A DNA stretch of 64,000 nucleotides from Elusimicrobia bacterium UBA4817 (GTDB lineage Bacteria; Elusimicrobiota; UBA8919). Within the stretch, counting starts at the first letter, position 1. Each line of letters opens with the position of its first letter. Positions 2,020 to 54,751 of the stretch are shown one piece after another. The translations under genes were made by a program, and so were the position numbers. Location: the NCBI GenBank assembly GCA_002402375.1, contig DHFT01000039.1, positions 12,809 to 76,808 of the forward strand, written 5' to 3'. The notes beneath the pieces were generated by a model. That model saw only the letters and a list, made by a program, of their open reading frames with translations, did not search any database and was not told the DNA's origin.

Positions 2020-4622
2020 TTTTGCTTTATAATTTTCTCAACGGATGATATCGCTTCATCCAGTTTTGAAATATCTTTTCCGCCGGCTTGTGCGAGGTCA
2101 ATTTTTCCGCCTCCTCCGCCGCCTACGATTTTTGATATTTCTTTTACAATTATTCTGGCATCAAATTTATCGGCGAGGTCTTTTGTAATTGACACAATGA
2201 GCGTCGGTTTTTCGTCAATAACAGAACCTAATACCACAATGCCTGATTTGATTTTGTTTTTCAGATTGTCGGAAGTGCTTCTGAGTTCATCTATGGATGT
2301 TATTTCCGTTTTTACCGCCAGTAGTTTTATGCCGTTGATTTCTTTAAGGTTTTTCAGTAAATCGTTTTCCTGTATTTTCGGTGTTTTTGAAATGCCCTTT
2401 TCAAGTTTTTTTTTATCGTCTGCAAGTTTTTGGAGTTTTGTAACGACTTCCGCCCGGGATGATTTCAATATCTCGGCCATTTCATCAATCGTTTCCCGCT
2501 GATTTTTCATAAAGTTATACGCTTCCATTCCGGTTATTGCTTCTATCCGCCGAAGACCGCTTCCGATACTGCCTTCGGATAAAATTATAAATTGTCCGAT
2601 TTCTCCGGTTGATTTACAATGAGTTCCGCCGCACAGTTCTACACTTTCAGGATTTTTTTCGTTTCCGGTAATGACGCACCGAACTTTCTCGCCGTATTTT
2701 TCGCCGAATAAAGCGAGCGCCCCCATTTTTTTTGCCTCGGCCACCGTCGTAATTTTTGTCGTCACTTTCAGATTTTCAAGAATTTTTTCATTAACATATT
2801 TTTCTATTAAAATCAGTTCCTCTTTTTTTAATTGTGTCGGATGGGAAAAATCAAATCTGAATCTGTCGTCGCTGACTTGTGAGCCGCGCTGAACGATATG
2901 GGTGCCGATAATTTGTCTTAAACTCTTATGCAAAAGATGAGTAGCGGTATGATTTCGCATAATGTTTTTTCTTCTTTCAAGAGCAATTTCGGCTCCAACC
3001 GTTTCGCCCGTTTTGATAATGCCTTTTATGATTTTTGCTCTGTGGATGATAAGGTTTTCAACCGGTTTCTGCGTATCAATAATTTCTACCTGACTTTGGA
3101 CTTCGGACTTCGGACTTCGGACTATTAACCTGCCCCTATCCCCAACCTGTCCGCCCGCTTCCCCGTAAAAAGGCGTCTCTTTTAGGATTATTTCCACCTC
3201 ATCGCCTTCGTTTGCCTGTTCAATAATTTTTCCGTCTTTTACTATTGCGGCTATTTTGGTTTTTGTTTTTGTCTCATCGTAGCCGGTAAAAACGGTATCT
3301 GCGAATTTTTTGTGAAGTTCAAAATAATTGCTCATATCAATATCTCCCGAACCTTTCCACGAAGTTTTGGAACGATTTTTTTGTTTCTCCATTTCTTCTT
3401 CAAACCCCTTGTCGTCTATAGATATTTCAGATTCAGCCAGAAGTTCTTTTGTTAAATCAAACGGGAAGCCGTAAGTATCATATAGTAAAAATGCATCTTT
3501 CCCGGAAATTGTTTTTCTGGATTTTTTTAATTCTTCAAGCATTTCAATCCCGCGCTCCAGCGTCATTAAAAATTTTTCTTCCTCCATTTTTATTATTCTT
3601 GCTATGTACTCGCGATTCAAATCCAGTTCAGGATATGCCGGTTTCATCGTCTCAACCACTTCAACTGCGATTCTGTAAAGGAACGGTTTGTCCATCTGCA
3701 ATTTTTTGCCGTGAGTAATTGCTCTTCTCAGGATTCTTCTTAAAACATAACCTCTTCCTTCATTGGACGGTAAAATGCCGTCGGAAATAAGAAATGTGAT
3801 TGCTCTCGCGTGGTCAGCAATTATTTTGGTAGATATATCATTTTTAATATCAGACAGGTTTTTTATAAAATCAATAATTCTTTTAAGCTCGTCGGTTTCA
3901 AAATTTGTTTTTGCCCTCTGAACCACCGCCGCCAGCCGTTCAAGTCCCATCCCGGTATCAATATTTTTTTGCGGAAGATTTTTTAATGTGCCGTCTGCTT
4001 GTTTGTCAAATTGCGTGAATACGAGGTTCCATACCTCAATATACCTGTCGCAGTCGCACCCCGGGCCGCAGGTTTTTTTGCCACAGCCGTTTCCTGTTCC
4101 CGTATCGTATAAAATTTCGGAACAGGGTCCGCAGGGACCGGTTTCTCCCATCTGCCAGAAGTTTGACGCCTCGCCTAATTTTACGATTTTGTTTAAAGGC
4201 AGGATTTTTTCCCAGATTTTGTATGCCTCGTCGTCATCTTTGTAGACGGAAGCGTAAAGTTTGTCCTTATCAAGTTTAAGTTCAACGGTCAGAAATTCCC
4301 ACGCCCACAAAATCGCTTCTTTTTTGAAATAATCGCCGAATGAAAAATTACCGAGCATCTCAAAAAACGTAAGATGTCTTGCGGTATGTCCGACATTTTC
4401 AATATCGGATGTCCTGAAACATTTCTGGACGGACGTCGCCCGCTGGTAATCGCTTTTGATTTTCTGCCTGCCTAAAAAATAATTTTTGAACTGCACCATT
4501 CCCGCCGATGTAAAAAGCAGCGTCGGGTCGGAAGAGGGCACCAGCGAGTCGCTCTTAAAAACGGTATGTTCTTTTTCTTTAAAAAACCTCAAAAATTTTT
4601 GTCTGATTTCGTTTGTAGTCAT
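2016..4622 (-). CDS. alaS: alanine--tRNA ligase
   Basis: 868 aa; N-terminus 'EIRQKFLRFFKEKEHTVFKSDSLVPSSDPTLLFTSAGMVQFK', class II catalytic core, editing domain (HxxxH), C-terminal GGGGG segment. Confidence 0.95.
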   Translation of the reverse strand: MTTNEIRQKFLRFFKEKEHTVFKSDSLVPSSDPTLLFTSAGMVQFKNYFLGRQKIKSDYQRATSVQKCFRTSDIENVGHTARHLTFFEMLGNFSFGDYFKKEAILWAWEFLTVELKLDKDKLYASVYKDDDEAYKIWEKILPLNKIVKLGEASNFWQMGETGPCGPCSEILYDTGTGNGCGKKTCGPGCDCDRYIEVWNLVFTQFDKQADGTLKNLPQKNIDTGMGLERLAAVVQRAKTNFETDELKRIIDFIKNLSDIKNDISTKIIADHARAITFLISDGILPSNEGRGYVLRRILRRAITHGKKLQMDKPFLYRIAVEVVETMKPAYPELDLNREYIARIIKMEEEKFLMTLERGIEMLEELKKSRKTISGKDAFLLYDTYGFPFDLTKELLAESEISIDDKGFEEEMEKQKNRSKTSWKGSGDIDMSNYFELHKKFADTVFTGYDETKTKTKIAAIVKDGKIIEQANEGDEVEIILKETPFYGEAGGQVGDRGRLIVRSPKSEVQSQVEIIDTQKPVENLIIHRAKIIKGIIKTGETVGAEIALERRKNIMRNHTATHLLHKSLRQIIGTHIVQRGSQVSDDRFRFDFSHPTQLKKEELILIEKYVNEKILENLKVTTKITTVAEAKKMGALALFGEKYGEKVRCVITGNEKNPESVELCGGTHCKSTGEIGQFIILSEGSIGSGLRRIEAITGMEAYNFMKNQRETIDEMAEILKSSRAEVVTKLQKLADDKKKLEKGISKTPKIQENDLLKNLKEINGIKLLAVKTEITSIDELRSTSDNLKNKIKSGIVVLGSVIDEKPTLIVSITKDLADKFDARIIVKEISKIVGGGGGGKIDLAQAGGKDISKLDEAISSVEKIIKQK

Positions 4623-10149: not shown

Positions 10150-12632
<2,483 letters not shown>

Positions 12633-12639
12633 TGTGCAT

Positions 12640-13050
12640 TTATTTGATTTTTCGTTTTGCTTTTATTTTATCCAGAATACCGTTAACAAATTTTCCGGAT
12701 TCATCCGTGGAAAAATCTTTTGCAAGTTCTATTGCTTCGTTTATTACTGCCTTCGGGGGTGTAGAAAGAGCATAGAGCAGTTCGTAAGAAGCAAGTCGCA
12801 AAATTGCCCTATCAACGGCGGCCATTCTATCAATATCCCAATTTTCCGCCGTCTGTTTTAGCAGTTCGTTTATTTCATCAAGATTTGCAATCGTTCCGTC
12901 AATAAGTTCCTGCGCGAATGCAACAATGTCCTTATCATAATTTTTTGTCTGCCAGAACGCTTTTTCTGCTTCTGCTTTGGTCAATTTACAGACATCCACA
13001 GCGTAGAGTATTTGCATTGCGCATTCTCGCGATATTCTTCTTGAACCCAT
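12640..13050 (-). CDS. nusB: transcription antitermination factor NusB
   Basis: 136 aa; '[18 protein letters not shown]' NusB family; conserved ribH-nusB adjacency. Confidence 0.85.
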
Positions 13051-13136: not shown

Positions 13137-13604
13137 TCATTTTATTACAGTATTCAGATTTGCCATCTCTATTGCCGTCATTGCTGCCTCGGCGCCTTTG
13201 TTGCCGGATTTTGTCCCTGCCCGTTCAATTGCCTGCTCAAGATTATCCGTCGTAATAACTCCGAAAACCGCCGGCACGCCGGTTTTAAGTCCGGTTGATG
13301 CAATCCCTTTTGTTACCTCCGCTGCGATATAATCAAAATGCGGCGTGTCGCCTTTTATGACCGCGCCCAGACAAATCACAGCGTCATATTTTTTTGACGA
13401 TGCGAGTTTGTTTGCCGCAAACGGAATTTCAAAAGAGCCCGGCACCCAAACGATGTCCAGATTTTTTTCGTCGGCATCGTGCCGTTTAAGCGCATCCAAA
13501 CATCCGTCTAAAAGTTTGGAAGTGATGAATTCGTTGAACCTTGAAATCACAATTCCAAATTTCAATCCCTTTGCCACTAGTTTCCCTTCAAAAACCTTTC
13601 CCAT
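13137..13604 (-). CDS. ribH: 6,7-dimethyl-8-ribityllumazine synthase
   Basis: 155 aa; '[14 protein letters not shown]…[15 protein letters not shown]' lumazine synthase signature. Confidence 0.9.
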
Positions 13605-13708: not shown

Positions 13709-14911
13709 TTATAGCAAATGTCCGCATTTTTCCTTTTTAGTTTTCAGGTATCTTTCTGCAAATTTTGATTTAGGTTTTATTTTTATAGGGAGCCGGTTTA
13801 CAACTTTTAGTCCGTAGCCCTCAAGTCCGATAATCTTTTTCGGGTTGTTGGTTAAAAGTTTTATGGTTGAAAGCCCTAAATCTACAAGTATCTGCGCACC
13901 TATTCCGTAATCCCGTAAATCAGGTTTGAAACCCAGTTGTATATTTGCTTCCACGGTGTCATAACCCCTGTCTTGTAATTCATATGCTTTTATTTTATTC
14001 AGTAATCCGATACCTCTTCCCTCCTGATGCATATATAATAAAACGCCGGTTCCTTGTTTTTGGATGATCTGCATTGATTTTTCCAACTGTTCGCCGCAAT
14101 CGCACCGCAGCGAATGAAAAGCGTCGCCGGTTAAACAGGATGAATGCACTCTGACAATAACATTTTTTTTATTTTTGATATCTCCTTTTACCATCGCCAG
14201 ATGATTTTCTTTTTTTAATTTATCCTGATATAAGTGAAGTATGAAATTGCCGTATCTCGTAGGAAAGTTTGGAATCGTTACTATTTTTTCAACAAGTTTT
14301 TCCGTCTGCCGTCTGTATTCAATAATCTGTGCTATTGTAATTATTTTTAATTTATGTTTTTTTGAGAATTTTAGAAGTTGCGTCATTCTTGCCATAGTCC
14401 CGTCTTCGTTCATTATTTCGCAAATTACGCTTGACGGATAAAGCCCTGAAATTTTTGCCATATCCACGCCGGATTCCGTATGTCCCGCTCTGACCAGCAC
14501 TCCGCCTTCTTTATAACGCAGCGGAAAAATATGCCCCGGTTTTATTAAGTCGTCCGGTTTCGTTTTAGGATTAATAATTGTTTTAACCGTCTGCGCCCTG
14601 TCGTGTGCCGAAATGCCGGTGGTTATTCCTTTTTTTGAGTCAACCGAGACGGTGAATGCGGCTTCCTTTACTTCAAGTCCGCTTGTTACCATCGGATGAA
14701 GTTCCAACTCGTCAAGTCGTTTTCCTTCCATAGCAATGCATATTAAACCCCGTCCTTCCTTCGCCATAAAATTTATTTTTTCAGGAGTGATTTTTTCGGA
14801 AGCATAAACTATATCGCCTTCATTTTCCCTTGCCGGGTCGTCAACGATTATAACTGCTTTGCCTTTTTTGAAATCTTTTATCGCTTCTTTAATATCAGAA
14901 AATTCAATCAT
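13709..14911 (-). CDS. ribBA: bifunctional 3,4-dihydroxy-2-butanone-4-phosphate synthase / GTP cyclohydrolase II
   Basis: 400 aa; DHBP synthase N-terminal half (DDPARENEGD) and GTP cyclohydrolase II C-terminal half (Cys cluster 'CLTGDAFHSLRCDCG'). Confidence 0.95.
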   Translation of the reverse strand: MIEFSDIKEAIKDFKKGKAVIIVDDPARENEGDIVYASEKITPEKINFMAKEGRGLICIAMEGKRLDELELHPMVTSGLEVKEAAFTVSVDSKKGITTGISAHDRAQTVKTIINPKTKPDDLIKPGHIFPLRYKEGGVLVRAGHTESGVDMAKISGLYPSSVICEIMNEDGTMARMTQLLKFSKKHKLKIITIAQIIEYRRQTEKLVEKIVTIPNFPTRYGNFILHLYQDKLKKENHLAMVKGDIKNKKNVIVRVHSSCLTGDAFHSLRCDCGEQLEKSMQIIQKQGTGVLLYMHQEGRGIGLLNKIKAYELQDRGYDTVEANIQLGFKPDLRDYGIGAQILVDLGLSTIKLLTNNPKKIIGLEGYGLKVVNRLPIKIKPKSKFAERYLKTKKEKCGHLL

Positions 14912-15527
14912 AAAATCCCGCCTTTTTTAGAGTTTCAAGTGTTATTTTATTTTTTTCTTTTTGTTGCAAAACATATTTTGCAAGAATGTCGGTTTCCAAA
15001 TTAACGGTATCTCCGTTTTTTTTTTCTTTAAGTGTCGTGTTATTTAATGTATGAGGAATTATTGCCGTTGAAAATGAATTTGTTTTTTTTTCCGCTACCG
15101 TTAAACTGATTCCGTCAATAGCCACCGAACCCTTTTCTGCGATATATTTTGACAGATTTTCAGGTATTGAAAATTGCCAAATTTCCGAATTCCCCGATTT
15201 TTTTATTTTTAATATTTTTCCGGTTCCGTCAATGTGTCCCGTAACGAAATGTCCGCCTAATTTACCGTCGGATTTTAATGCTCTTTCAAGATTAATAATG
15301 CTTCCAATTTTTAATTCTCCCAAATTTGTTTTTTTTAAGGTTTCTTCGGAAATGTCAGCCGTGAACTCGTGAACTCGTGAACTCGCTAAATCGCTAACTG
15401 TCAAACAAATACCGCTAACACAAATACTGTCGCCAATGTTTATATCATCAAGTTTTGTCTCGACGGTAATTTGTGTTTTATTTATTTTTTTTACAGTTCC
15501 TAAATCTTCAATTATTCCAGTGAACAT
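14904..15527 (-). CDS. ribE: riboflavin synthase alpha subunit
   Basis: 'MFTGIIEDLGTV' N-terminus and the internal duplicated lumazine-binding repeat. Start moved to the internal ATG. Confidence 0.9.
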   Translation of the reverse strand: MFTGIIEDLGTVKKINKTQITVETKLDDINIGDSICVSGICLTVSDLASSRVHEFTADISEETLKKTNLGELKIGSIINLERALKSDGKLGGHFVTGHIDGTGKILKIKKSGNSEIWQFSIPENLSKYIAEKGSVAIDGISLTVAEKKTNSFSTAIIPHTLNNTTLKEKKNGDTVNLETDILAKYVLQQKEKNKITLETLKKAGFYD

Positions 15528-15531
15528 AGTT

Positions 15532-16545
15532 TTACACAAAGAGCGGGTTTGAAAAAATCCAGGGTTTGAAGCCAAATTTTTTCAGATAACATTCGCATCT
15601 GTATACGCCGTTTCCTTCGGTTTTTACTACTAATGTATCAGAAAAACTTTCTGCGAACAAGTTTCCGTTTTTAATGATTTTTATTTTTGCCGCCCTTGGT
15701 ATTTTAACGGTTATTTTATCATTTTCCCTGTAAAATTGAAAGCCCCTTGCATTTGAAAAATAATCGTTTGAGATAAAAGATTTTCCGTTTTTTAATGCGT
15801 TGTGAATCTTTTCAATATCAGAATCATTTTTTGAAAACGGCTCATCTATCGTTATATGAGTTCGTATAGTTCTAAATGCAAAGTCAAACGGGAAAATCTT
15901 TAAGTTAATGCCCAAATACTTCCTGGTGCTTTCATGGTTGTCAATTTCCCCTATCCCGTATTTTTTATTCGCTTCGCTCACCCCCGATTGAAATCGGGGG
16001 CTACAAGTTATGTCATCCCATCTTCTGAGTGTTTCTTTTTTGGGACCTTTAAGAAAATGTGCCGGGAATAGATAACTCAAAAGTGCCGTCGGATAATTTT
16101 TCAATGTCTTCTGCCAGTCGGTCTGCAAATCCCATATACAAAAGCCGGTGTAATTTTTAACGTTCCAGTCATTCCATCGGTATGATTTTATATCAAACTT
16201 TTTGTTGCCCTCGTGGTCGGGATGTGCGATAAAACCGTACCCGCCCTGACGGTTCACTTCGTCAATATATTTTTGCGGATTATTTTCCTGTTTATCAACA
16301 ACAACTGCATTTTTTATGTCAAAAGCGAGATAATGATTATATCTGGGAGAAATTTCTTCCCCGACAATAACAAGGGTGTTTTTATGCCAGCCCTCGTATT
16401 TTTTTGCTTCAATTGAAAAATGGTCTGTTACGACGATGAAATCAAGTCCGCATCTGTTAGCCGATTCAATAATTTCCTCCGGTTTCCTGTGTCCGTCAAA
16501 CGAATAAAAGGAATGAATATGAATTGCCCCGCAGTAATCAAACAT
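15532..16545 (-). CDS. PHP-domain metal-dependent phosphoesterase, embedded in the rib operon
   Basis: 337 aa; 'AIHIHSFYSFDGH…FIVVTDH' PHP His motifs; overlaps ribD by 8 bp and sits 5 bp upstream of ribE. Confidence 0.7.
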   Translation of the reverse strand: MFDYCGAIHIHSFYSFDGHRKPEEIIESANRCGLDFIVVTDHFSIEAKKYEGWHKNTLVIVGEEISPRYNHYLAFDIKNAVVVDKQENNPQKYIDEVNRQGGYGFIAHPDHEGNKKFDIKSYRWNDWNVKNYTGFCIWDLQTDWQKTLKNYPTALLSYLFPAHFLKGPKKETLRRWDDITCSPRFQSGVSEANKKYGIGEIDNHESTRKYLGINLKIFPFDFAFRTIRTHITIDEPFSKNDSDIEKIHNALKNGKSFISNDYFSNARGFQFYRENDKITVKIPRAAKIKIIKNGNLFAESFSDTLVVKTEGNGVYRCECYLKKFGFKPWIFSNPLFV

Positions 16546-17608
16546 TTAAATATCCCTCAAACAAAAAATCTTCTTCTATTTTTTCTACAGATATATTTTT
16601 AACGTCCGCGGCATTTTTTACGTATTCCGTACTGTTAATAATTTTAGGACAGATAAAAAACATAATTTTATCAACTAATTTTTCTTTAAGAAATGATTTG
16701 GCAACCGTTTCTCCGCCTTCAACAATCAGCGACGAAATACTCATTTTGCCGAGTTTAACCAGCAATTTTTTAATATCCAGAAAATTGTTTTTTAATGGGA
16801 GTTCAATTATCCCTATACCCATTTTTTTAAGTTTTTCTTTTTTAACTCTGTTTGAATTTATTGATGTTGCAATTATCGTTTTTGACTTACCGTTTAGTAC
16901 ATTTGTACTAAATGGAATTTTTAATCCGGTATCAAGAATTACTCTGACAGGATTTTTTCCTTTTCCGTGTGATGTCAGTTTCGGGTTGTCTTTTAATACA
17001 GTATTTATTCCAACCAGTATAGCATCGGTTCGGCTTCGTAATTGATGAACGGTTTCTCTGGATTTTTCAGAACTGAGCCATTTTGAATCTCCGCTCTCCG
17101 TTTTTGTTTTACCGTCTAAAGAGTATGCCATTTTAAGAATTACAAAGGGCGTTTTTGTTTTGATGTATTTTATGTATGTCTCGTTTAATTTTTTTGCTTC
17201 TTTTTCCATCACACTCACTTTACACTTTACACCTTTCACTTTCAACTGTCTTATCCCTTTCCCGCCAACCGCCGGGTTCGGGTCTTTTGTTGCGATAACA
17301 ACTTTTTTTATGCCGCTATTTATTATCTGCGGTACACAAGGCGGAGTTTTTTTATTGTAATGACAGCATGGCTCCAAGTTAACATACATCGTCGCATCTT
17401 TCGGGTTTTTACATTTTTTTAATGCCTCAACTTCCGCATGTGGCCCGCCAAAATATTTATGATAACCTGTTGAAAGAATTTTTCCGTTTTTTACGATTAC
17501 ACAACCGACCATAGGATTCGGACTGACTTTACCTTGTCCTTTTTTAGCAAGTTTTATTACCAATTGCATAAATTTTCTGTCTTCGTCTGTGTAATCTGTT
17601 TTTTTCAT
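16538..17608 (-). CDS. ribD: bifunctional diaminohydroxyphosphoribosylaminopyrimidine deaminase / 5-amino-6-(5-phosphoribosylamino)uracil reductase
   Basis: 356 aa; CMP/dCMP-type deaminase 'HAEVEAL…PCCHY…PPC' N-terminus and RibD reductase C-terminal domain. Confidence 0.9.
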   Translation of the reverse strand: MKKTDYTDEDRKFMQLVIKLAKKGQGKVSPNPMVGCVIVKNGKILSTGYHKYFGGPHAEVEALKKCKNPKDATMYVNLEPCCHYNKKTPPCVPQIINSGIKKVVIATKDPNPAVGGKGIRQLKVKGVKCKVSVMEKEAKKLNETYIKYIKTKTPFVILKMAYSLDGKTKTESGDSKWLSSEKSRETVHQLRSRTDAILVGINTVLKDNPKLTSHGKGKNPVRVILDTGLKIPFSTNVLNGKSKTIIATSINSNRVKKEKLKKMGIGIIELPLKNNFLDIKKLLVKLGKMSISSLIVEGGETVAKSFLKEKLVDKIMFFICPKIINSTEYVKNAADVKNISVEKIEEDFLFEGYLNV

Positions 17609-17632: not shown

Positions 17633-17668
17633 AAAAAATCCCCAATTTGTCTTCGGGGTTTATTGGGC
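17633..17668 (-). terminator. intrinsic terminator (FMN riboswitch expression platform)
   Basis: Minus-strand 'CCCAATAAACCCCGAAGACAAATTGGGGATTTTTTATTT': G/C stem followed by a U-tract, immediately 3' of the FMN aptamer. Confidence 0.65.
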
Positions 17669-17701
17669 GAATAAATTCACCTTTACAAAAAACATATTAT
17701 A

Positions 17702-17843
17702 CTCTTCTATCATCCGGACTTTACCGTCGGTATCTGAATTTCACAGATTCGGTCCCGAACATTTTTAATAAAAAATGTGAGAGATTAGCGGACTTTTACC
17801 GCCGGTCGGGAATTCCTGTTTAGGTCACCCCACCCCGAAGAGT
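17702..17843 (-). promoter_or_regulatory. FMN riboswitch (RFN element) leading the rib operon
   Basis: The minus strand reads 'CTCTTCGGGGTGGGGTGACCTAAACAGGAATTCCCGACCGGCGGTAAAAGTCCGC…GGGACCGAATCTGTGAAATTCAGATACCGACGGTAAAGTCCGGATGATAGAAGAG', matching the RFN consensus blocks GGGG(C/T)GGGTGAAATTCCC, GACCGGCGGTA.AAGTCCGC and CCGACGGTAAAGTCCGGATG. Confidence 0.85.
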
Positions 17844-17849
17844 AATGTA

Positions 17850-17877
17850 ATTATACAAAAAATAAAATAAATGTCAA
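17850..17877 (-). promoter_or_regulatory. sigma70-type promoter (TTGACA-N16-TATAAT) for the FMN riboswitch / rib operon
   Basis: The minus strand reads TTGACA, 16 nt, TATAAT, ending about 7 nt before the aptamer 5' end. Confidence 0.5.
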
Positions 17878-18797
17878 TTAAATTTTTTGGAAAAAGAAAT
17901 ATAAGTGGTTCTGTCAAACACGCTGTTGACGGCACTTGCAAAATCAAATCCGAAATCCTTCCATAGTATTCCGATCCCGAAATTTGTTCCGTTAATTTTT
18001 CCCGCTTTGTTGAGATATCCGCCTCTTAAAAAAAGCCAGTTGAGGTAAGAGTACTCGCCGCTGAATCTCGGACGGAATATATCATCTTTTTCCCGTAAAA
18101 AATCAAAAGATACGTCAAAATTATTTTCGCGGTTATTTAACAGGGTATATGACAGTCCGCATCGGACGGAACTTGGCAGGTCGTCTTTTACAGGGTCGTT
18201 GGAATAAATGACCTTTGTTCCGAAATTTTCGCCGGAAAATCCGAGTTTAAGATTTCTTACAAAATCAACTTTATATAAAATTCCGAAATCAATTGCTTGG
18301 GCGTTCCCGATAGTTTTTCCAAAAATGGGATTTTTTTCATATCTGTAAATGTATTTTAGATTTATTCCGAAGGAGAGATTGTGAAAAAGATTTCTTCCAT
18401 AGGCGACAGAAAACGCCCAGTCGTTCCATATCAGTTCGCCCATATCGTAGTTAAATTCGTCGGTAACGGGTATCGGGGTAATTCTGTAACTTAATATGCC
18501 GATAGCCATGGCGCCATGTTTTTTTAGCGACAACAGTCCGCCGAGATACTGCATAACGGCATCGCCTTGAGGCGCCGGCGAATGGGAAAAAGTTATTTCG
18601 CTTTCCGAATCCGCAATGCCTGCCGGATTATGAAAAAATGATGATGCGTCTAATTTTGTTGCGGCGGATGTTTCAGCTAAAGAAATTATTCTTGCGCCTC
18701 CTGCCAGTTTCAGAAAATCGGCGCCGGTGTGAGTGGAAGCGTAGAGGCAATTAAAAATTAAAAATGGAAAATTAAAAATTAAAATGATTGTTTTCAT
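17874..18797 (-). CDS. FadL/PorV/PorQ-like outer-membrane beta-barrel protein (T9SS-associated?)
   Basis: 307 aa, signal peptide, N-terminal 'GADFLKLAGGARIISLAETSAATKLDASSFFHNPAGIA' FadL/PorV-like motif, alternating beta-strand pattern; tandem paralogue of the next gene. Confidence 0.5.
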   Translation of the reverse strand: MKTIILIFNFPFLIFNCLYASTHTGADFLKLAGGARIISLAETSAATKLDASSFFHNPAGIADSESEITFSHSPAPQGDAVMQYLGGLLSLKKHGAMAIGILSYRITPIPVTDEFNYDMGELIWNDWAFSVAYGRNLFHNLSFGINLKYIYRYEKNPIFGKTIGNAQAIDFGILYKVDFVRNLKLGFSGENFGTKVIYSNDPVKDDLPSSVRCGLSYTLLNNRENNFDVSFDFLREKDDIFRPRFSGEYSYLNWLFLRGGYLNKAGKINGTNFGIGILWKDFGFDFASAVNSVFDRTTYISFSKKFN

Positions 18798-19741
18798 TAA
18801 AATTTGCAGTTCAGCGTAAATCTGTTAACGTCGGTCAATTTTTCATGTGAGGTGAATGAGTAGTCAATGGAGATTATTTTTGCCGAAAATCCCGCACCGA
18901 AAGAATAGTTCTGCAATGTTGTATATCCCGCCCGCAGTTTGAAATTTTTGACGGCGTTAAGTTCAACTCCCAAATTACCGTTCAAGATATTTTCTCTCTG
19001 TCTAACCCCGTCAACGGACAAAAGCAGTTTATCAAAATTCCTGCTTATTCCCAGTCGCAATTCCGACGGTAAAACGTCCTTTTCGCCGCCGAATGAAATT
19101 TTACTGCCTACATTTCTTATACAAAAACCGAAATCAAAAGGCAGGTTGTAGCCGGAATATAATAATCCCAAATCCGCCGCAATTGCCGTTGCCGATTCCC
19201 CTGCCAGTTTCTCGTTCAGATATTTTACGGTTATTCCTGCATCCAAAGGATAGATTTTTCTTGCGTAGGAAATACCGGCGACCGCGTCGCTGTTTAAGAA
19301 TTCGTCCCGTCCTATTCCGCGTTCATCTCTTTCAACATCTTTTGATGACAGATATTTTAATGTTATGCCGATGTTTCCTTTAATTTTTTGGATGTATGTT
19401 GAGAACTTCATATCCTCAAGATTGACATCTTCAAAATATTCCGAATGCGAAAAAGAAAAATTATAGTCGGGCAGGTTTGAAATTGCTGCGGGATTAAAAT
19501 CCAACGCTCCAAGATTTTCCGATAAGGATGTGACCGCTTCCGCCATGGCGGATGTTTTTGCCTCGGGGCTGATTCGTAGCAACAGTCCGGCAGATGTTCC
19601 GGTGTCAGAGGCAGAGAACAAAGTTAAAGGTATAAGGTTAAAGGTTAAAATAAAGCAGATGAAAAATGAAAAATGAAAAGTTGAAATTTTGGCAGTATTT
19701 AGACCTTTAACTTTTAATTTTAACCTTCTTTTTATTTTCAT
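18797..19741 (-). CDS. FadL/PorV/PorQ-like outer-membrane beta-barrel protein (paralogue)
   Basis: 314 aa, signal peptide, 'GTSAGLLLRISPEAKTSAMAEAVTSLSENLGALDFNPAAIS' motif, C-terminal Phe; start overlaps the downstream gene. Confidence 0.5.
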   Translation of the reverse strand: MKIKRRLKLKVKGLNTAKISTFHFSFFICFILTFNLIPLTLFSASDTGTSAGLLLRISPEAKTSAMAEAVTSLSENLGALDFNPAAISNLPDYNFSFSHSEYFEDVNLEDMKFSTYIQKIKGNIGITLKYLSSKDVERDERGIGRDEFLNSDAVAGISYARKIYPLDAGITVKYLNEKLAGESATAIAADLGLLYSGYNLPFDFGFCIRNVGSKISFGGEKDVLPSELRLGISRNFDKLLLSVDGVRQRENILNGNLGVELNAVKNFKLRAGYTTLQNYSFGAGFSAKIISIDYSFTSHEKLTDVNRFTLNCKF

Positions 19742-21279
19742 TTTTTTATGACTGTAATCTTTCCTTTACAGGAATCAGTTTGGGTTTTTGCTGCATAAAA
19801 ATATATTCCCGATGCAACAGTAGAACCATTTTCATTTTTGCCGTCCCATATAACGGAAGTTCCGCTGCCGTCAATTTCTCTGACGAGGTTTCCTTCCAAA
19901 TTATAAATTTTTATGTTTATCACAGAGTTATCCGGGAAATTTTTTATTGTCAGATTTCCGGTTGAAGGGTTATAAGGGTTCGGTGCGTTGACGACATAAT
20001 TTAATGACTGCGGTCCGTAGGTCACTTTTGAATAATAATCAGCCAAAAACTCATCCCAGTTTGTCGCCTGACAGAAACTTAAATTTTCATAATTACCGTC
20101 GGGATTATTCCAAATTTCCCAATCATCTTTTGTTTTCGGAAAGTTTATAGAAAGTCCGTGTGAATTTTTATGGGTGCTTCCAACTCTGTTTGCGAGCACA
20201 CAATCATTAATGGAGTCCATTACATTGCTCGCAGAGTTTCTCAAAGACGCCGAGTCCAAATCGGGGTTTTGTTCAATAATATAGGCTAAATCATAAATGT
20301 CAATTCCGCCGTATTGAACATTGCTTGATTCACCGTAATAATCAACCGCATCTCTTGTAAGATATAAAGGAATAGTTTTTTTTGTTGAGATAAGTTGATA
20401 TGCAAAATTATCTATTGCCGCCGCCAACTCGCCGATTTTTGACAAATCCACTGCCGATGCGGTTCTTTTATCAAGCACTGAAGAAAAATAAGAAACTGCC
20501 TCGTCGGAATACGCCTTATCCCAGATGTCAACAATTTTTTGCGAGAATGTTTTCGGGTCATAATTCGGATTTGAAACAAGTTCCGTCAAAATTCCGTCAT
20601 AAGGCCAGCCGTATTCGTTTTCTTCGGAGGCAACCATATAGTTCGCAGAATCTTTTATCTGATATGCGATTTCAATTTGTGCCATAAGGCATGCGTCCAA
20701 TCCGATGATGTCAATATTTTTTCCGAGATATGTTTTTATCGTAGAAAGTGCGTTTCCGAGTTCCGCCGTTGTCAGATAATCATTGTCGTCGGTAGTATCG
20801 TCCCATGCTATTCCTTTTTTTAGTTTTGGTGATTTGGGCCACCATCCGCCTCCGTGATTCCACACGACAAGACAATAATTTTCCGCCGGATAATTCGCTA
20901 TTGTCCATGTTGAAAATACGACAAGCGTTGCGTGGTCGCCTGTGTTCAATTCATTTGTTGTTGCAGACGGAAGTAAATTTGCAATAGTTATTGTAGGCGT
21001 GTTTATTGTGAATGTGTCGGTATCGTTTTGTATTTTGTAAAGGTAAGTATTACCGTCGCCGTTTTTATCCGCAAGAACAATTATGTTTACATCAGTTGAA
21101 TTTGCGGCAACTTCCATTTTGTTTATGTCCCGTTTCAACTGGTCGCCTTTCAGTGATGTATCAAGAGAATTATCACCTGCGATGTAGACGATAAATGTCC
21201 ATTTTGCCGCGGATAAAAATGTGCTAAAAAATATGGACAGGCATAATACCTGTCCATATTTAAGAATTTTTTTTGTCAT
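19738..21279 (-). CDS. clostripain-like (C11) cysteine peptidase with T9SS C-terminal sorting domain
   Basis: Signal peptide; 'WTFIVYIAGDNSLD', His-Gly dyad 'VVWNHGGGW', catalytic Cys 'IGLDACLMAQIE'; C-terminal approx 80 aa 'KIYNLEGNLV…SGIYFYAAKT…KITVIKK' matching the Por-secretion CTD pattern. Confidence 0.75.
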   Translation of the reverse strand: MTKKILKYGQVLCLSIFFSTFLSAAKWTFIVYIAGDNSLDTSLKGDQLKRDINKMEVAANSTDVNIIVLADKNGDGNTYLYKIQNDTDTFTINTPTITIANLLPSATTNELNTGDHATLVVFSTWTIANYPAENYCLVVWNHGGGWWPKSPKLKKGIAWDDTTDDNDYLTTAELGNALSTIKTYLGKNIDIIGLDACLMAQIEIAYQIKDSANYMVASEENEYGWPYDGILTELVSNPNYDPKTFSQKIVDIWDKAYSDEAVSYFSSVLDKRTASAVDLSKIGELAAAIDNFAYQLISTKKTIPLYLTRDAVDYYGESSNVQYGGIDIYDLAYIIEQNPDLDSASLRNSASNVMDSINDCVLANRVGSTHKNSHGLSINFPKTKDDWEIWNNPDGNYENLSFCQATNWDEFLADYYSKVTYGPQSLNYVVNAPNPYNPSTGNLTIKNFPDNSVINIKIYNLEGNLVREIDGSGTSVIWDGKNENGSTVASGIYFYAAKTQTDSCKGKITVIKK

Positions 21280-21282
21280 TTT

Positions 21283-23316
21283 TTATTTTAATACAACCGC
21301 CCGTTTTGTTCCGATTTCTTTTCCGTTGACGGTGAGACGGTAATAATAAACGCCCCTGGAAAGTTTGTCGCCGGAATCATATTTTACAGAGTGTTCGCCT
21401 TGCGTCTGGTCTTCGTCAACAATGGTATCAACTTCCTGTCCCGCTACATTGTAAAGTTTGATGGATACCCTGCCGCCCTCCGGTATAAAATAATTAAATG
21501 TCGTCGCCGGGTTAAACGGGTTGGGATAATTCTGACCGAGCGTTGCCTGTTTTACGCCCCCGTCTTCAGATTCAACTTCATCATCAACATCACTTCTTGA
21601 TGTCGCATAAGAGGAGCCGACGGTTACCGTCGGTTGTTTGGAAATTGCCGTAAGTGTTCCGCCGTTTCCCGCTGTTCTTGTCGTAAATTTTGCCGTGCCT
21701 TCCGACGGTTGTGTGGTAAATTTGAGGTATGAAAGTTTTAACTTGTCGCCGCTTCCGTACGCGAGCCGGTCAGCGGGTATCCCTGTTATTGTAACTTTTT
21801 GCCCCGAAACAGAAGCCGTCAGTTTATATGATGTCGTCCGATATTTATAAATATACGCCTTGACATATCCCTTGCCTGTTGATGCTGTGTTTTGAGGCGA
21901 TGTCCATCCGGTCGGAATCGTTACCTCCGCCGTTCCGCTTCCGAGTGAGCCCGCTGCTGACGGCGTCAGAGTGTATGTTATTGATGTGTAATATGTGCTT
22001 GGTGCTACGCCTTTTTTGGAAAGTGATGTTGTTCCGCTTCCGTCAGCACCTGTTTGAGTTGAACCTCCGCCGCTTCCGAGGTTTCCCGCATAGTATCTGT
22101 TCAAGAAATCATCCCACTTGTTTGCCGATTCAGAACCGTACAAAATTGCAGATGTATAGGCACTATCATAATATGATTTTGTTTTCGGGAAATAAACGCA
22201 CATTCCGTAAGAACCGTATTTTGCCGTATCATTTCTCGGCGAGGTAAATCTTGTTTTTACAACTGCGTCGGTTACTGCGGTTTTTAACTCTGATGCCGCC
22301 GTCTGAATAGAAGAACTTGTAACCTTGCTTCGGACCTGTTCTGCAAATCTGTAGATATCAAGTCCGTAATAACCGTCTGATTCCGAATACGCCTTGCAGT
22401 TTTCTCTGGCGGATTTTATTGATGTTAATTGCGAGTTATCGTTCATCGCATCTGCAAACGCATTCAGTTTTAATACAAGGTTGCTGACTTTCGGTATATC
22501 AATTGCCGATTGTGTTATTGCTTCCGATGTCGGATATGATTCTGCATATTTGTTGACTATTGTTTCGCCAAGTTGTTTCGGTGTCGCCGTCGGATTTGTC
22601 GCAAGCCATGAAAGAATTGTGTCGTGAGGCCAGCCGTCGCCCGGTTCCGTCTCTTCCGAGCCGACCATTACACCGTCGGTAGTATTTATTACATTTCTTA
22701 ATTCGTAAGCAACTTCCAGATGTCCCATAAGGCAGGCATCCATACCGATTAAATCAAAAGTATGTGATGCATTCTGGATTGCTGTTCTTACTTCTTTCAT
22801 ATAAAGACAATCATCGTTGTTCCCGTCGTCCCAGCATATTGCTCTTTCCATCGGCGAAAAAGAAATTGAGCGGTCGCGCCATCCGCCGCCGTGATTCCAC
22901 AAAACGAGCGCATACCTGTCCGCCGGATAATTAAGCCACACCCATGTTATAAAATTTGTGAGGGTTGTCGGCGAGCCCATATTTGATTCGCCGAGGTCTT
23001 CAAGCGCGTTTGCTGTCGTCGGCGTCATACCTTTTGTCACTTTGAATCTTTTACATGTTTTCCAGTCGCCGTAAGTTGTATCATAACCGGATGCCCTGTC
23101 AAACTGGACAACGATGTTTATATCGGCGTTGCTTCCCACCTTTGCCATTTCCAGAAAATCATTTACACCGGCGTCTTCAAGATTGTTGTCGGCGTCCAGA
23201 TAAACGGCGTAAGTCCATTTTGCTTTTGCGAAACACGGATTAACGCAGATAACACCGCAGATTAACACAGATAAAAACAATCCTGCCAATCCTACTGTCC
23301 AAACCCTTTTCAACAT
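21283..23316 (-). CDS. clostripain-like (C11) cysteine peptidase with T9SS C-terminal sorting domain (paralogue)
   Basis: Signal peptide; 'WTYAVYLDADNNLE', 'LVLWNHGGGW', 'IGMDACLMGHLE'; Ser/Thr/Gly-rich middle region; C-terminal 'KLYNVAGQEV…RGVYYYRLTVNGKEIGTKRAVVLK' CTD. Confidence 0.75.
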   Translation of the reverse strand: MLKRVWTVGLAGLFLSVLICGVICVNPCFAKAKWTYAVYLDADNNLEDAGVNDFLEMAKVGSNADINIVVQFDRASGYDTTYGDWKTCKRFKVTKGMTPTTANALEDLGESNMGSPTTLTNFITWVWLNYPADRYALVLWNHGGGWRDRSISFSPMERAICWDDGNNDDCLYMKEVRTAIQNASHTFDLIGMDACLMGHLEVAYELRNVINTTDGVMVGSEETEPGDGWPHDTILSWLATNPTATPKQLGETIVNKYAESYPTSEAITQSAIDIPKVSNLVLKLNAFADAMNDNSQLTSIKSARENCKAYSESDGYYGLDIYRFAEQVRSKVTSSSIQTAASELKTAVTDAVVKTRFTSPRNDTAKYGSYGMCVYFPKTKSYYDSAYTSAILYGSESANKWDDFLNRYYAGNLGSGGGSTQTGADGSGTTSLSKKGVAPSTYYTSITYTLTPSAAGSLGSGTAEVTIPTGWTSPQNTASTGKGYVKAYIYKYRTTSYKLTASVSGQKVTITGIPADRLAYGSGDKLKLSYLKFTTQPSEGTAKFTTRTAGNGGTLTAISKQPTVTVGSSYATSRSDVDDEVESEDGGVKQATLGQNYPNPFNPATTFNYFIPEGGRVSIKLYNVAGQEVDTIVDEDQTQGEHSVKYDSGDKLSRGVYYYRLTVNGKEIGTKRAVVLK

Positions 23317-47110: not shown

Positions 47111-47289
47111 TTTTCCTCCAAAATTTTTATTTACTATTTTTCCATTTCTACTTTTAACCTGACGCGTAGCGTCACACTGAACTTGATTCAGTGTCTCGTT
47201 GAGAGATGCCGAAACTAGTTCGGCATGACACTTCGTGTCACTTTTAAGTTTTTATTTTCATTTCTGCCTCCCTTTCTCTCGAAGAGAAT

Positions 47290-47440
47290 TTTATTGCAGA
47301 CAGACAGATTTCCTGACTCAGGTTCGTCCGAAATTTCGCCTTCCCATCCCTATTTATCCGGACAGTGGCATTTATGAAATTTCATCCCCTTCACAGTAGC
47401 GGGACTGTTCCGGAATTACACCGGATTCCCTATTCTGCCT
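47290..47440 (-). promoter_or_regulatory. cobalamin (B12) riboswitch #1
   Basis: The minus strand reads 'AATAGGGAATCCGGTGTAATTCCGGAACAGTCCCGCTACTGTGAAGGGGATGAAA…AATGCCACTGTCCGG…GGGAAGGCG', containing the B12 box GCCACTG and the conserved GGTG.AA.TCC / CCCGC.ACTGT elements. Confidence 0.85.
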
Positions 47441-48216
47441 ACATTTGACACCAAAATTATATACGGTTTTTTTGATATAGGATTTTTTTCTACGACTACA
47501 ACCGTTTTATAAACCTCTTCAATAATTTGATAGGTTAAAACATCCGAAGGTATTCCGATTTTATGCATATTGCCGTTATTGAGAAGCATTATTCTATCGC
47601 AGTACTCGCTTGCTAAATTCAAATCGTGCAAAACCATCATCACCGTAAGTCCAAGGTTTGTATTTAATTTTTTTGTAAGGTCCAAAATTCTTATCTGATG
47701 CGCTATATCTAAATGCGCCGTCGGTTCATCCAGCACAAGCAGTTTCGGTTGTTGAACAATAGCACGGGCGATAAAAACAAGTTGTCTTTCACCGCCGCTT
47801 AATTCCAATATAGGACGGTTTCGTAAATTAAATGTTTCGGTTAATAACATTGCTTGTTCAACAATTTCTTCGTCTTGTTTCGTTTCTAAAAATTGTAATT
47901 TGGAATGATATGGCGTTCTGCCTAATTGCACGATTTCTTCCGCAGTCATGTTAAAGTATGATTCTGAAAATTGCGTCACCACAGCCATTTTTTTAGCCAG
48001 TTCGTTAAGTCCTGTTTTTTTTAGAGATTTCCCTTCAAAAATAATCTGTCCTGTCTGCGGTTTAATTATCTTACTTATCGCCCGAAGCAGTGTTGTTTTA
48101 CCGGAACCGTTAGGGCCGATTATTCCGAGTATTTCTTTGTTTTTTAGTTCAAAGTTAATATCTTTTAAGACGAACTTATTATTGTATCCGCAAACAAGAT
48201 TTTTTACTTCAAGCAT
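47416..48216 (-). CDS. btuD: ABC transporter ATP-binding protein (BtuD/FecE-type)
   Basis: 266 aa; Walker A 'GPNGSGKTT', 'LSGGERQ', Walker B 'LLVLDEPT'. Confidence 0.85.
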   Translation of the reverse strand: MLEVKNLVCGYNNKFVLKDINFELKNKEILGIIGPNGSGKTTLLRAISKIIKPQTGQIIFEGKSLKKTGLNELAKKMAVVTQFSESYFNMTAEEIVQLGRTPYHSKLQFLETKQDEEIVEQAMLLTETFNLRNRPILELSGGERQLVFIARAIVQQPKLLVLDEPTAHLDIAHQIRILDLTKKLNTNLGLTVMMVLHDLNLASEYCDRIMLLNNGNMHKIGIPSDVLTYQIIEEVYKTVVVVEKNPISKKPYIILVSNVGRIGNPV

Positions 48217-53689: not shown

Positions 53690-53850
53690 AAAAAACCCAA
53701 CTCCAGAGAAGTTGAGCAAACTTTCTCCCCGCGGAGTTTTTGTAATTGATAGACCGGGCTTCGCTTCGCTCGGTCGGACTAAAATCCGACCTACAAAAAC
53801 ATCACCGTTGCGGGGCAGCTTCCGAATTACACGGAATTCCTTCAATTACA
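53690..53850 (-). promoter_or_regulatory. cobalamin riboswitch #2 with terminator-type expression platform
   Basis: The minus strand reads 'GAAGGAATTCCGTGTAATTCGGAAGCTGCCCCGCAACGGTGATG…AAGCCCGGTC…CGGGGAGAAAG', nearly identical in its conserved blocks to riboswitch #1. It is followed by 'CAACTTCTCTGGAGTTGGGTTTTTTGTTT' (hairpin plus U-tract) just before the cobO ATG. Confidence 0.75.
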
Positions 53851-53857
53851 ATTTTTA

Positions 53858-53885
53858 ATTATATTATTTTTAACAAAAATGTCAA
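53858..53885 (-). promoter_or_regulatory. sigma70 promoter (TTGACA-N16-TATAAT) for riboswitch #2 and the cob operon
   Basis: The minus strand reads TTGACATTTTTGTTAAAAATAATATAAT, ending about 7 nt before the aptamer. Confidence 0.5.
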
Positions 53886-54751
53886 GAAAAAAGATGACTA
53901 TGATTTTTTTCCAAATTGTTTTTATATTTTTTCAGTTCTATAACAGCAGAATAAGGCACTTTTGTCTTTCCCATTATAGGCGGCTCGCCGTTCATTGCAC
54001 CGTGGCAGTCGCTTCCCCCTGTCATAATCATTCCGAATTTGTCCGCCATTTTTTTGAATTTGTCGGTTTCATCCGCCGAATGTTTTGTGTGCCAAACCTC
54101 AATACCCTTTAATCCGAAATTAGCAAGAGATTTTACAACATTGCAATTGATACTGTTAAAATGCGGATGCGCCAAAACCGGAATCCCGCCGACTTGTAAA
54201 ATCATTTTTATAGCTTCGTCGGGTGATAAACTGAATTTCGGAACATATGCAGGTTTACCGTCGCCGAGATATTTCCAGAATGCTTCCTGCGTATGCGAAA
54301 CGGATTTATTTTCAACGAGCATTTTTGCGAAATGAAGCCGCCCTATTACTCCGATGCCCGCTATTTCAAACAGCCGTTGTTCGTCAATCGTAATTCCCAG
54401 ACCTTTCAATTTATCCAAAATATGATATGCCCGTCTTTCTCTTGCCTTTCTGAAAAGTTTTAATTTTTGCTGAAAAGATGAATCCTCCCAGTTTATGAAA
54501 TATCCGAGTATGTGCATTTCCTGCTGATGAGAATTTTTTAATTCCACCGAAAGTTCTATTCCCGGTATTACTTCAATCCCTCTTTTTGAACCCTCTTTGA
54601 TTGCACTGGGTATTCCTTCGGTTGTATCGTGGTCGGTTATGCTGATGGTTGCAAGTCCTACTTTCTGTGCATACCTTACGCTTTCTTCCGGCGAGAAAGT
54701 TCCGTCTGAGTATTTTGTGTGAGTATGCAAATCCGCAAAAAGAGTATCCAT
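53882..54751 (-). CDS. PHP-domain phosphoesterase (TrpH/YciV-like)
   Basis: 289 aa; 'ADLHTHTKYSDG…ITDHD' PHP motifs. Confidence 0.75.
   Translation of the reverse strand: MDTLFADLHTHTKYSDGTFSPEESVRYAQKVGLATISITDHDTTEGIPSAIKEGSKRGIEVIPGIELSVELKNSHQQEMHILGYFINWEDSSFQQKLKLFRKARERRAYHILDKLKGLGITIDEQRLFEIAGIGVIGRLHFAKMLVENKSVSHTQEAFWKYLGDGKPAYVPKFSLSPDEAIKMILQVGGIPVLAHPHFNSINCNVVKSLANFGLKGIEVWHTKHSADETDKFKKMADKFGMIMTGGSDCHGAMNGEPPIMGKTKVPYSAVIELKKYKNNLEKNHSHLFS

Follow-up and report, generated by a model that had tools for sequence, protein, structure and literature searches.

The main finding obtained in this work was a gene for a PHP-fold metallohydrolase lodged between ribD and ribE, in a riboflavin biosynthesis operon of an Elusimicrobia bacterium that is headed by an FMN riboswitch. 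The ribD-PHP-ribE arrangement exceeds chance, the same order having been found in nine other inspected loci, and the tight coupling of the gene within the riboswitch-controlled operon, which a preliminary description had noticed in this one locus, proved to be conserved over a deep Elusimicrobia clade. Dephosphorylation of 5-amino-6-(5-phospho-D-ribitylamino)uracil (ARPP, or ARAPDP) is the one step of riboflavin biosynthesis without a universally assigned enzyme, and we hypothesize that the PHP protein may carry it out. This is the best single hypothesis, held tentatively and at somewhat less than an even chance, for a candidate that rests on the gene order of one lineage.

In the window, that is, the whole stretch of 64,000 nucleotides that was analysed, the operon and its regulatory elements lie on the minus strand as follows.

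17850..17877, minus strand: sigma-70-type promoter-like site, TTGACA-16-TATAAT, just 5' of the riboswitch, assigned by consensus match only (12/12)
17698..17846, minus strand: FMN riboswitch aptamer (RFN element), RF00050, 96.1 bits against a gathering threshold of 66.2, full model 1-138
17640..17658, minus strand: terminator-like G+C-rich hairpin, CCCCGAAGACAAATTGGGG, followed by a T-run, from a reading of the sequence
16538..17608, minus strand: ribD, pyrimidine deaminase/reductase (Pfam dCMP_cyt_deam_1 and RibD_C)
15532..16545, minus strand: PHP-fold metallohydrolase ORF of 337 aa (ORF list, Pfam, NCBIfam, homologues, AlphaFold model)
15976..16005, minus strand: 30-nt in-frame insertion in the PHP gene, CSPRFQSGVS, present only in the window and in loci L001 and L002, in a low-confidence loop of the model
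14904..15527, minus strand: ribE, riboflavin synthase (two Pfam Lum_binding domains)
13709..14911, minus strand: ribBA, DHBP synthase / GTP cyclohydrolase II (Pfam)
13137..13604, minus strand: ribH, lumazine synthase (Pfam)
12640..13050, minus strand: nusB, on the same strand and 3' of ribH (Pfam)

Pfam, RF00050 and the reading of the junctions agree that a PHP-family gene stands between ribD and ribE under the RFN element, as had been described. The stop of ribD and the start of PHP share 8 nt (ATGTTTGA, as read from the junction sequence), with a Shine-Dalgarno-like GAGGGA 9 nt 5' of the PHP ATG; at the other end AACT separates the PHP stop codon TAA from the ribE ATG at 15527. Thus, the 8-bp junction given in the preliminary description was confirmed as an overlap, whereas the 5-bp gap given for PHP and ribE is a spacer of 4 nt, a trivial difference. 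The ATG at 15527 was taken as the ribE start in preference to the TTG at 15575 of the ORF list because homologues of RibE are 207-208 aa long. The PHP ORF lies 3' of the RFN element in the same transcription unit, and we infer its co-transcription from the overlaps. A promoter search inside ribD, 5' of the PHP gene, gave nothing better than a 9/12 match, and minus-strand terminator-like sites were not found from the riboswitch hairpin to ribH. The hairpin at 17640-17658 probably serves as the expression platform of the riboswitch, and would act by transcription attenuation. Recent horizontal insertion of the PHP gene was ruled out, its GC content (0.374) and GC3 (0.385) being those of the window average (0.377) and its arrangement being clade-wide. 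Downstream of the rib operon lies ligA, a gene for an NAD-dependent DNA ligase. The 30-nt insertion in the PHP gene contains a perfect palindrome, CCCCCGAT-TTCA-ATCGGGGG, at 15981-16000, of which a second copy was not found elsewhere in the window.

Comparisons of the predicted product with known families suggest a cytoplasmic PHP-superfamily hydrolase of a two-domain subfamily that is uncharacterised and lies close to TM0559 and 3e38. The ORF matches the Pfam PHP family (PF02811) with 31.1 bits against a cut-off of 26.4, a match limited to the N-terminal motifs (residues 8-66). Among NCBIfam models the best match was NF038032, 'CehA/McbA family metallohydrolase' (E = 2.8e-21, residues 4-262), with a score of 76.3 bits that places it marginally under the curated cut-off of 80 and hence just outside the family, and CehA/McbA metallohydrolase is also the name that NCBI gives to orthologues. 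The ORF fell far below the NCBIfam cut-offs for HisJ-family histidinol phosphatase (TIGR01856 / NF004086) and for PolX, and the models of 3',5'-nucleoside bisphosphate phosphatase / RNase AM (COG0613-type PHP) gave 17.7 against 400 and 17.8 against 375. A HAD domain was not found in the protein by the Pfam scan, nor was a signal peptide seen by eye. At E <= 1e-3 there were 710 homologues in a database clustered at 90% and 2,202 in a library clustered at 50%, the latter with 237 at E <= 1e-30, and nearly all of them are single-gene proteins of 330-360 aa.

The AlphaFold (AF2) model, made from an alignment of 20 sequences (pLDDT 92.2, pTM 0.90), predicts two domains, an N-terminal alpha/beta PHP barrel (about residues 1-235) and a C-terminal all-beta sandwich (about 255-337), and the PHP (distorted TIM-barrel) fold is predicted with confidence. 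The fold matches, with their scores, were the two-domain PHP-like phosphoesterase 3e38, which is uncharacterised (18.1), the uncharacterised PHP protein TM0559 (2anu, 17.7), PsfC (7rty, 16.4), EndoQ (5zb8, 15.5), BAD_1165 (3o0f, 14.1), RNase AM (9etk, 12.7) and the histidinol phosphate phosphatases 4gc3, 3dcp and 2yxo (about 8). TM0559 was also the best sequence-profile match (E = 8e-5). Residues H9, H11, D17, H42, E64, H108, D202 and H204 are invariant family-wide, and so are H71, H111 and H230. The first eight fit the PHP metal-ligand pattern HxH...D...H...E...H...DxH of HisK, the L-histidinol phosphate phosphatase of L. lactis, and are the presumed metal ligands; by analogy, the protein probably carries a trinuclear metal centre. 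Further invariant residues are W124, W127, W138, W144, R175, W176, Y315 and R316.

The distribution of the arrangement was followed in a scan of one genome per species, which yielded 245 PHP relatives, and the best 80 loci were examined for rib neighbours within 8 kb of the PHP gene by tblastn with the Rib proteins of the window. The order ribD-PHP-ribE-ribBA-ribH-nusB was found in only six of these 80 (L001-L005 and L008), all of them from Elusimicrobia and with a PHP identity of 60-88%. Three others came from metagenomic relatives, L081/L082 (P0014), L085 (P0017) and L097 (P0006), so that ribD-PHP-ribE-ribBA-ribH was seen directly in the window and in nine other loci from different assemblies. 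Eight further 90% clusters (P0003, P0005, P0008-P0011, P0018 and P0020) lie on contigs of exactly the same length as those of the best RibD matches; they are presumably the same contigs, and the clusters appear to belong to such operons as well. An FMN riboswitch stands 5' of ribD in seven of the eight other distinct PHP-containing operons that span that region (L001-L003, L005, L008, L081 and L085; of the near-duplicates L081 and L082, the riboswitch scan covered L081), and none was detectable in that position in L004. Between the window and L008, identity is 57% for RibD, 60% for PHP, 50% for RibE and 66% for RibBA, and these similar values indicate that the PHP gene evolves at the rate of the rib enzymes. 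The genes flanking the operon vary among the rib-linked loci.

Inside the clade, rib linkage is not universal: on at least two occasions the gene has moved out of the operon. L006 and L007, also from Elusimicrobia and with a PHP identity of 64-66%, were without rib genes in the 8 kb around PHP. The assembly of L007 (MGVS01) keeps an RFN-controlled ribD-ribE-ribBA-ribH-nusB operon without the PHP gene, which is unlinked there, and its RibD, 71% identical to that of the window, is nearer than the RibD of several PHP-containing operons. In L083/L084 and L094/L095 the PHP gene lies 3' of a gene for a NadB-like FAD enzyme, and in L083/L084 also 5' of a flavodoxin gene; in L096 a truncated PHP copy adjoins a transposase gene. 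An FMN riboswitch was not found near the PHP genes without rib linkage in L006, L007, L009, L026, L028, L046, L083, L084 and L091-L093. The rib operons of outgroup Elusimicrobia (L087-L090) do not contain the PHP gene. In a neighbour-joining tree, rib-linked PHP genes are found on basal as well as crown branches of the Elusimicrobia clade, and those without linkage fall in between; therefore, the linkage is most simply ancestral to the clade. The ribD-PHP-ribE order is thus probably an ancestral feature of the clade, and it was, most simply, lost at least twice within it.

Outside the clade the picture is different. In 72 of the 80 loci, from Syntrophales/Smithellaceae, Nitrospinota, another Elusimicrobiota and others (43-49% identity), no rib gene lay within 8 kb, and three other loci from Firmicutes and Planctomycetes were likewise without rib neighbours. 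In loci of the Syntrophales type, a gene for a DegP/HtrA protease lies 5' of PHP in 60 of 80, an HhH-GPD endonuclease-III-like gene with the orientation of PHP directly precedes it in 37 of 80, and DUF374 is encoded 3' of it in 16 of 80; an Fpg/MutM-like ORF, recognised by eye, is near PHP in 21 loci. Two Firmicutes share the order M20 peptidase, a protein of about 360 aa, PHP, and the Planctomycetes locus has none of the DegP, HhH-GPD, DUF374 or M20 peptidase arrangements. There is no gene context of PHP that is common to several phyla. A RibD-PHP fusion of the Rosetta-stone kind was not present among the 150 best representatives: the sole long protein with a PHP C-terminus is the distant representative P0288 (707 aa), in which that C-terminus is fused to an LPG_synthase_TM domain. 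Consequently, the 'strong guilt-by-association' claimed in the preliminary description was overstated, the association coming from one lineage. Association with rib genes and RFN elements, the key check that it had proposed, is strong within one Elusimicrobia clade and absent from the 72 loci and from the three of Firmicutes and Planctomycetes. A subfamily widespread outside rib contexts and with another assigned function had been named as what would speak against the idea; the subfamily is indeed widespread there, and yet no member of it has an assigned function.

Specialisation of the rib-linked proteins was sought at the level of single residues. Sixty-seven positions are conserved at 95% or more in both the Elusimicrobia clade and the remaining family, and fixed differences between the two were seen at three positions only (L140/F, Q141/M and Y196/V). 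Five positions are invariant in rib-linked proteins and always different in four relocated genes, and none of them is a predicted ligand. A rib-specific sequence signature was therefore ruled out, since the differing positions are few and no predicted ligand separates rib-linked from relocated proteins. The 67 conserved positions against three fixed differences make it probable, as far as sequence can tell, that the biochemical activity is the same throughout the PHP subfamily. If so, the enzyme would also work as an unlinked housekeeping gene, and the neighbourhoods in Syntrophales and Firmicutes would be hints to its function that are as valid, and as weak, as the rib operon.

In addition to the coupling, the riboswitch, the conservation of the order in the clade and the intact set of candidate ligands, the hypothesis that the PHP protein is the ARPP phosphatase draws on three considerations. 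The phosphatase step is the sole rib step without a gene of its own in the operon of the window, so the proposed role would fill the only pathway step not otherwise encoded there. Repression by FMN would make sense for this step, and would make none for a phosphatase acting on FMN or for a housekeeping enzyme without a tie to the pathway. Besides, PHP enzymes include small-molecule phosphomonoesterases, some of them biosynthetic, which favours the role. The mechanism that we propose begins with the insertion of the PHP gene between ribD and ribE in one Elusimicrobia clade. FMN binding to the riboswitch would terminate transcription, so that the phosphatase would be made from an FMN-attenuated transcript alongside the enzymes that make and use its substrate, and its synthesis would be translationally coupled to that of RibD. 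The candidate enzyme, a metal-dependent and possibly promiscuous small-molecule phosphomonoesterase by prediction, would most likely dephosphorylate 5-amino-6-(5-phospho-D-ribitylamino)uracil and so convert the product of RibD into the substrate of RibH. Rib linkage is confined to one Elusimicrobia clade, and because the association comes from a single lineage, the support that gene order gives to this role is moderate.

The alternative that has to be weighed most carefully is that the protein is a housekeeping hydrolase and a mere passenger, acting on a compound outside flavin metabolism (a nucleotide, a sugar phosphate, a lipid or another ester). Its gene would have come to lie in the rib operon in one Elusimicrobia ancestor, and would have been kept there since read-through expression was adequate. 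We consider this alternative unlikely, though by no means negligible. Most family members are not rib-linked, their contexts vary by lineage, and the gene has repeatedly moved elsewhere with its conserved residues intact; the LPG_synthase_TM fusion and the frequent DUF374 gene downstream hint at envelope or lipid chemistry, and NCBIfam puts the protein beside the CehA/McbA metallohydrolases, whose namesakes hydrolyse carbaryl, a carbamate ester, and are much larger than the window protein. However, selection should act against an unrelated gene that stands amid an essential operon and is repressed by FMN, and the arrangement, including the stop/start overlap, persists down to a RibD identity of 57%; nor is there an alternative context that is conserved across phyla. 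A different flavin-related role, as a damage-control or overflow hydrolase of reactive phosphorylated intermediates or as an FMN or DHBP phosphatase, would share with the ARPP phosphatase the evidence of operon and riboswitch. Rib operons elsewhere hold accessory genes such as ribT and that of the COG3236 N-glycosidase, and some of the relocated PHP genes adjoin flavoprotein genes (NadB-like FAD enzyme, flavodoxin), which may be a coincidence. Nothing supports such a role specifically, and an FMN phosphatase shut off by FMN would be illogical; we regard it as improbable.

The neighbours in Syntrophales point in another direction, towards a phosphodiesterase that repairs DNA or RNA or processes its ends, much as EndoQ, RNase AM and the PHP domain of PolX do. 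The HhH-GPD gene directly upstream in 37 of 80 loci, the Fpg/MutM-like ORF in 21, ligA downstream of the operon, the calculated pI of 8.8 of the window protein and the presence of EndoQ and RNase AM among the fold matches are all in line with it. Nevertheless, the HhH-GPD linkage is confined to Syntrophales and absent in 43 of 80 loci, and it is a single-lineage signal too; the orthologues L058 and L009 have a calculated pI of 6.4-7.4, the Pfam scan shows neither a zinc finger of the EndoQ type nor a helical domain for DNA binding, and RNase AM and PolX models score far below their cut-offs. A nucleic acid substrate is improbable as well. Least of all do we expect a non-hydrolytic PHP-fold enzyme, for instance an oxidative di-iron enzyme like PsfC: sequence identity to PsfC is only 11%, and the full set of PHP ligands is invariant, including D17, H42 and H204 of the third site.

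The ARPP phosphatase hypothesis remains the one that we prefer, and it has a wider form. The two-domain PHP subfamily could be a fourth, independently evolved ARAPDP phosphatase, for which we use the name 'RibZ', acting throughout the family in lineages that are mostly anaerobic (Elusimicrobia, Syntrophales, Nitrospinota, Planctomycetes and some Firmicutes); taken as a whole, this is possible, if rather doubtful. If 'RibZ' is true, it would be the first ARAPDP phosphatase step encoded in an FMN-riboswitch-controlled rib operon, and it would be an argument that the riboflavin pathway can have a dedicated phosphatase. An FMN-repressed phosphoesterase coupled to ribD would make a concrete candidate, of a fourth fold, and would offer, if the candidate is true, a first way into the function of a PHP subfamily that is so far uncharacterised and counts 237 clusters at 50% identity with E below 1e-30. 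Should the ARPP role be false, an unrelated gene is able to persist within an essential vitamin operon. A literature search gave no PHP enzyme tied to a rib operon and no described function for any member of the PHP subfamily of the window, and the papers found to mention TM0559 appear to be concerned with other topics; the hypothesis is legitimate and apparently unpublished.

Among PHP proteins, the useful comparison is with the L-histidinol phosphate phosphatases HisJ and HisK (4gc3, 3dcp, 2yxo), which belong to the same superfamily as the window protein, are distant from it by fold match, and have a trinuclear site with the pattern HxH...D...H...E...H...DxH. Like the proposed enzyme, they are small-molecule phosphomonoesterases of a biosynthetic pathway. 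The closest structures, the two-domain 3e38 and TM0559 (2anu), are uncharacterised and hence have no bearing on the substrate, and NF038032 (CehA/McbA), the best library match, is a 'domain' model for which the window protein falls just below the cut-off.

The ARAPDP phosphatases reported so far belong to three unrelated folds, HAD, histidine phosphatase and IMPase, and PHP is not included (PMC12051542, PMC13151069); hence, as the preliminary description had proposed, the PHP candidate is non-orthologous to the known enzymes. HAD phosphatases acting on ARAPDP have been described in E. coli (YigB/YbjI), B. subtilis (YcsE/YwtE/YitU), B. thetaiotaomicron and Arabidopsis (PMC12051542, PMC13151069). 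They catalyse the reaction proposed here for the PHP protein and are soluble metal-dependent phosphomonoesterases acting after RibD (PMC13151069), but they have a Rossmannoid fold unrelated to PHP and an Asp nucleophile. Unlike the PHP gene of the window, these promiscuous and redundant enzymes are not known to have their genes in rib operons or under RFN control. The unlinked PHP genes would resemble the HAD ARPP phosphatases of E. coli and B. subtilis, being housekeeping genes outside the rib operon. According to a 2025 paper and a 2026 review, evidence for a dedicated ARAPDP phosphatase is limited and the field is still seeking one (PMC12051542, PMC13151069). In Aquifex aeolicus, where the rib genes are scattered over the genome (PMC13151069), the histidine-family AaHFP (PDB 9MMH) and the IMPase AaIMP (9MMI) are ARAPDP phosphatases (PMC12051542). 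These two differ from the PHP protein in fold and mechanism, the HFP using a phospho-histidine intermediate, and they were identified by biochemistry, whereas the window PHP candidate was identified by its gene context. They nonetheless provide a precedent both for non-HAD folds in ARAPDP dephosphorylation and for a specific enzyme that is compatible with the pathway (PMC12051542).

Further elements noted in the window are the following:

15976-16005, minus strand, 30-nt in-frame insertion inside the PHP open reading frame, encoding CSPRFQSGVS
17874-23316, minus strand, genes for two outer-membrane proteins (weak, PorV-like) and for two peptidases of the clostripain family (C11), adjoining the rib promoter on its upstream side
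47286-47470, minus strand, cobalamin riboswitch (100.6 bits)
53731-53901, minus strand, marginal cobalamin riboswitch (32.5 bits)

The insertion in the PHP gene contains a perfect palindrome with an 8-bp stem, CCCCCGAT-TTCA-ATCGGGGG, of which no second copy was found in the window. It is restricted to the window and to two other Elusimicrobia rib operons (L001 and L002), being missing in all other homologues, and it lies within the sole low-confidence loop (pLDDT about 58) of the AlphaFold model of the PHP protein.

Upstream of the rib promoter, both C11 peptidase genes carry type IX secretion C-terminal sorting domains. At the other end, the order rib operon, nusB and NAD-dependent DNA ligase gene (ligA) is kept in Elusimicrobia with or without the PHP gene, as seen in the window (10525-13050, minus strand), at the PHP-containing operon L081 and at the outgroup operon L087, which lacks PHP; in the window, the stretch from nusB to ligA showed no terminator-like site. 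Among the PHP-containing rib operons inspected, only L004 (about 3100-3470) had no detectable FMN riboswitch: none was found upstream of its ribD, even at E ≤ 0.1, and the sequence there is unrelated to its counterpart at the other loci.

Some Elusimicrobia carry the PHP gene away from the rib operon. One such sublineage, in which the rib linkage was lost (L083 1297-4631; L094 732-3289), has a gene for a NadB-like FAD_binding_2 flavoprotein directly upstream of PHP, and at L083 a flavodoxin gene lies downstream of PHP. At L096 (120-2249), a Transposase_mut gene is followed after 60 nt by a truncated PHP gene of 279 aa; perhaps an IS element has been caught here in the course of moving or disrupting the gene.

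Outside this Elusimicrobia clade, two further gene arrays were observed:

L058 5830-9772, example of the DegP/HtrA, HhH-GPD, PHP and DUF374 array
L091 3008-7912 and L093 2896-7050, Firmicutes arrays of M20 peptidase, a protein of about 360 aa and PHP

The former recurs on one strand at Syntrophales-type loci (L010-L080), in the order DegP/HtrA protease, HhH-GPD (endonuclease III-like) protein, PHP orthologue and DUF374. The HhH-GPD gene ends only a few nucleotides ahead of the PHP start in 37 of the 80 loci, and an Fpg/MutM-like reading frame, recognised by eye, lies close by in 21 loci. The latter is common to Calderihabitans maritimus and Clostridiales PH28_bin88; its protein of about 360 aa had no Pfam match, and in Calderihabitans a second, canonical PHP gene (280 aa) lies immediately 3' of the array PHP gene.

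A different association is found in P0288, a homologue of 707 aa from the representative protein library, in which an N-terminal LPG_synthase_TM domain (lysyl-phosphatidylglycerol synthase-type, membrane) is joined to a full-length copy of the PHP subfamily with 36% identity. The fusion gives a hint that the role of one or more branches of the subfamily is tied to membranes or lipids.
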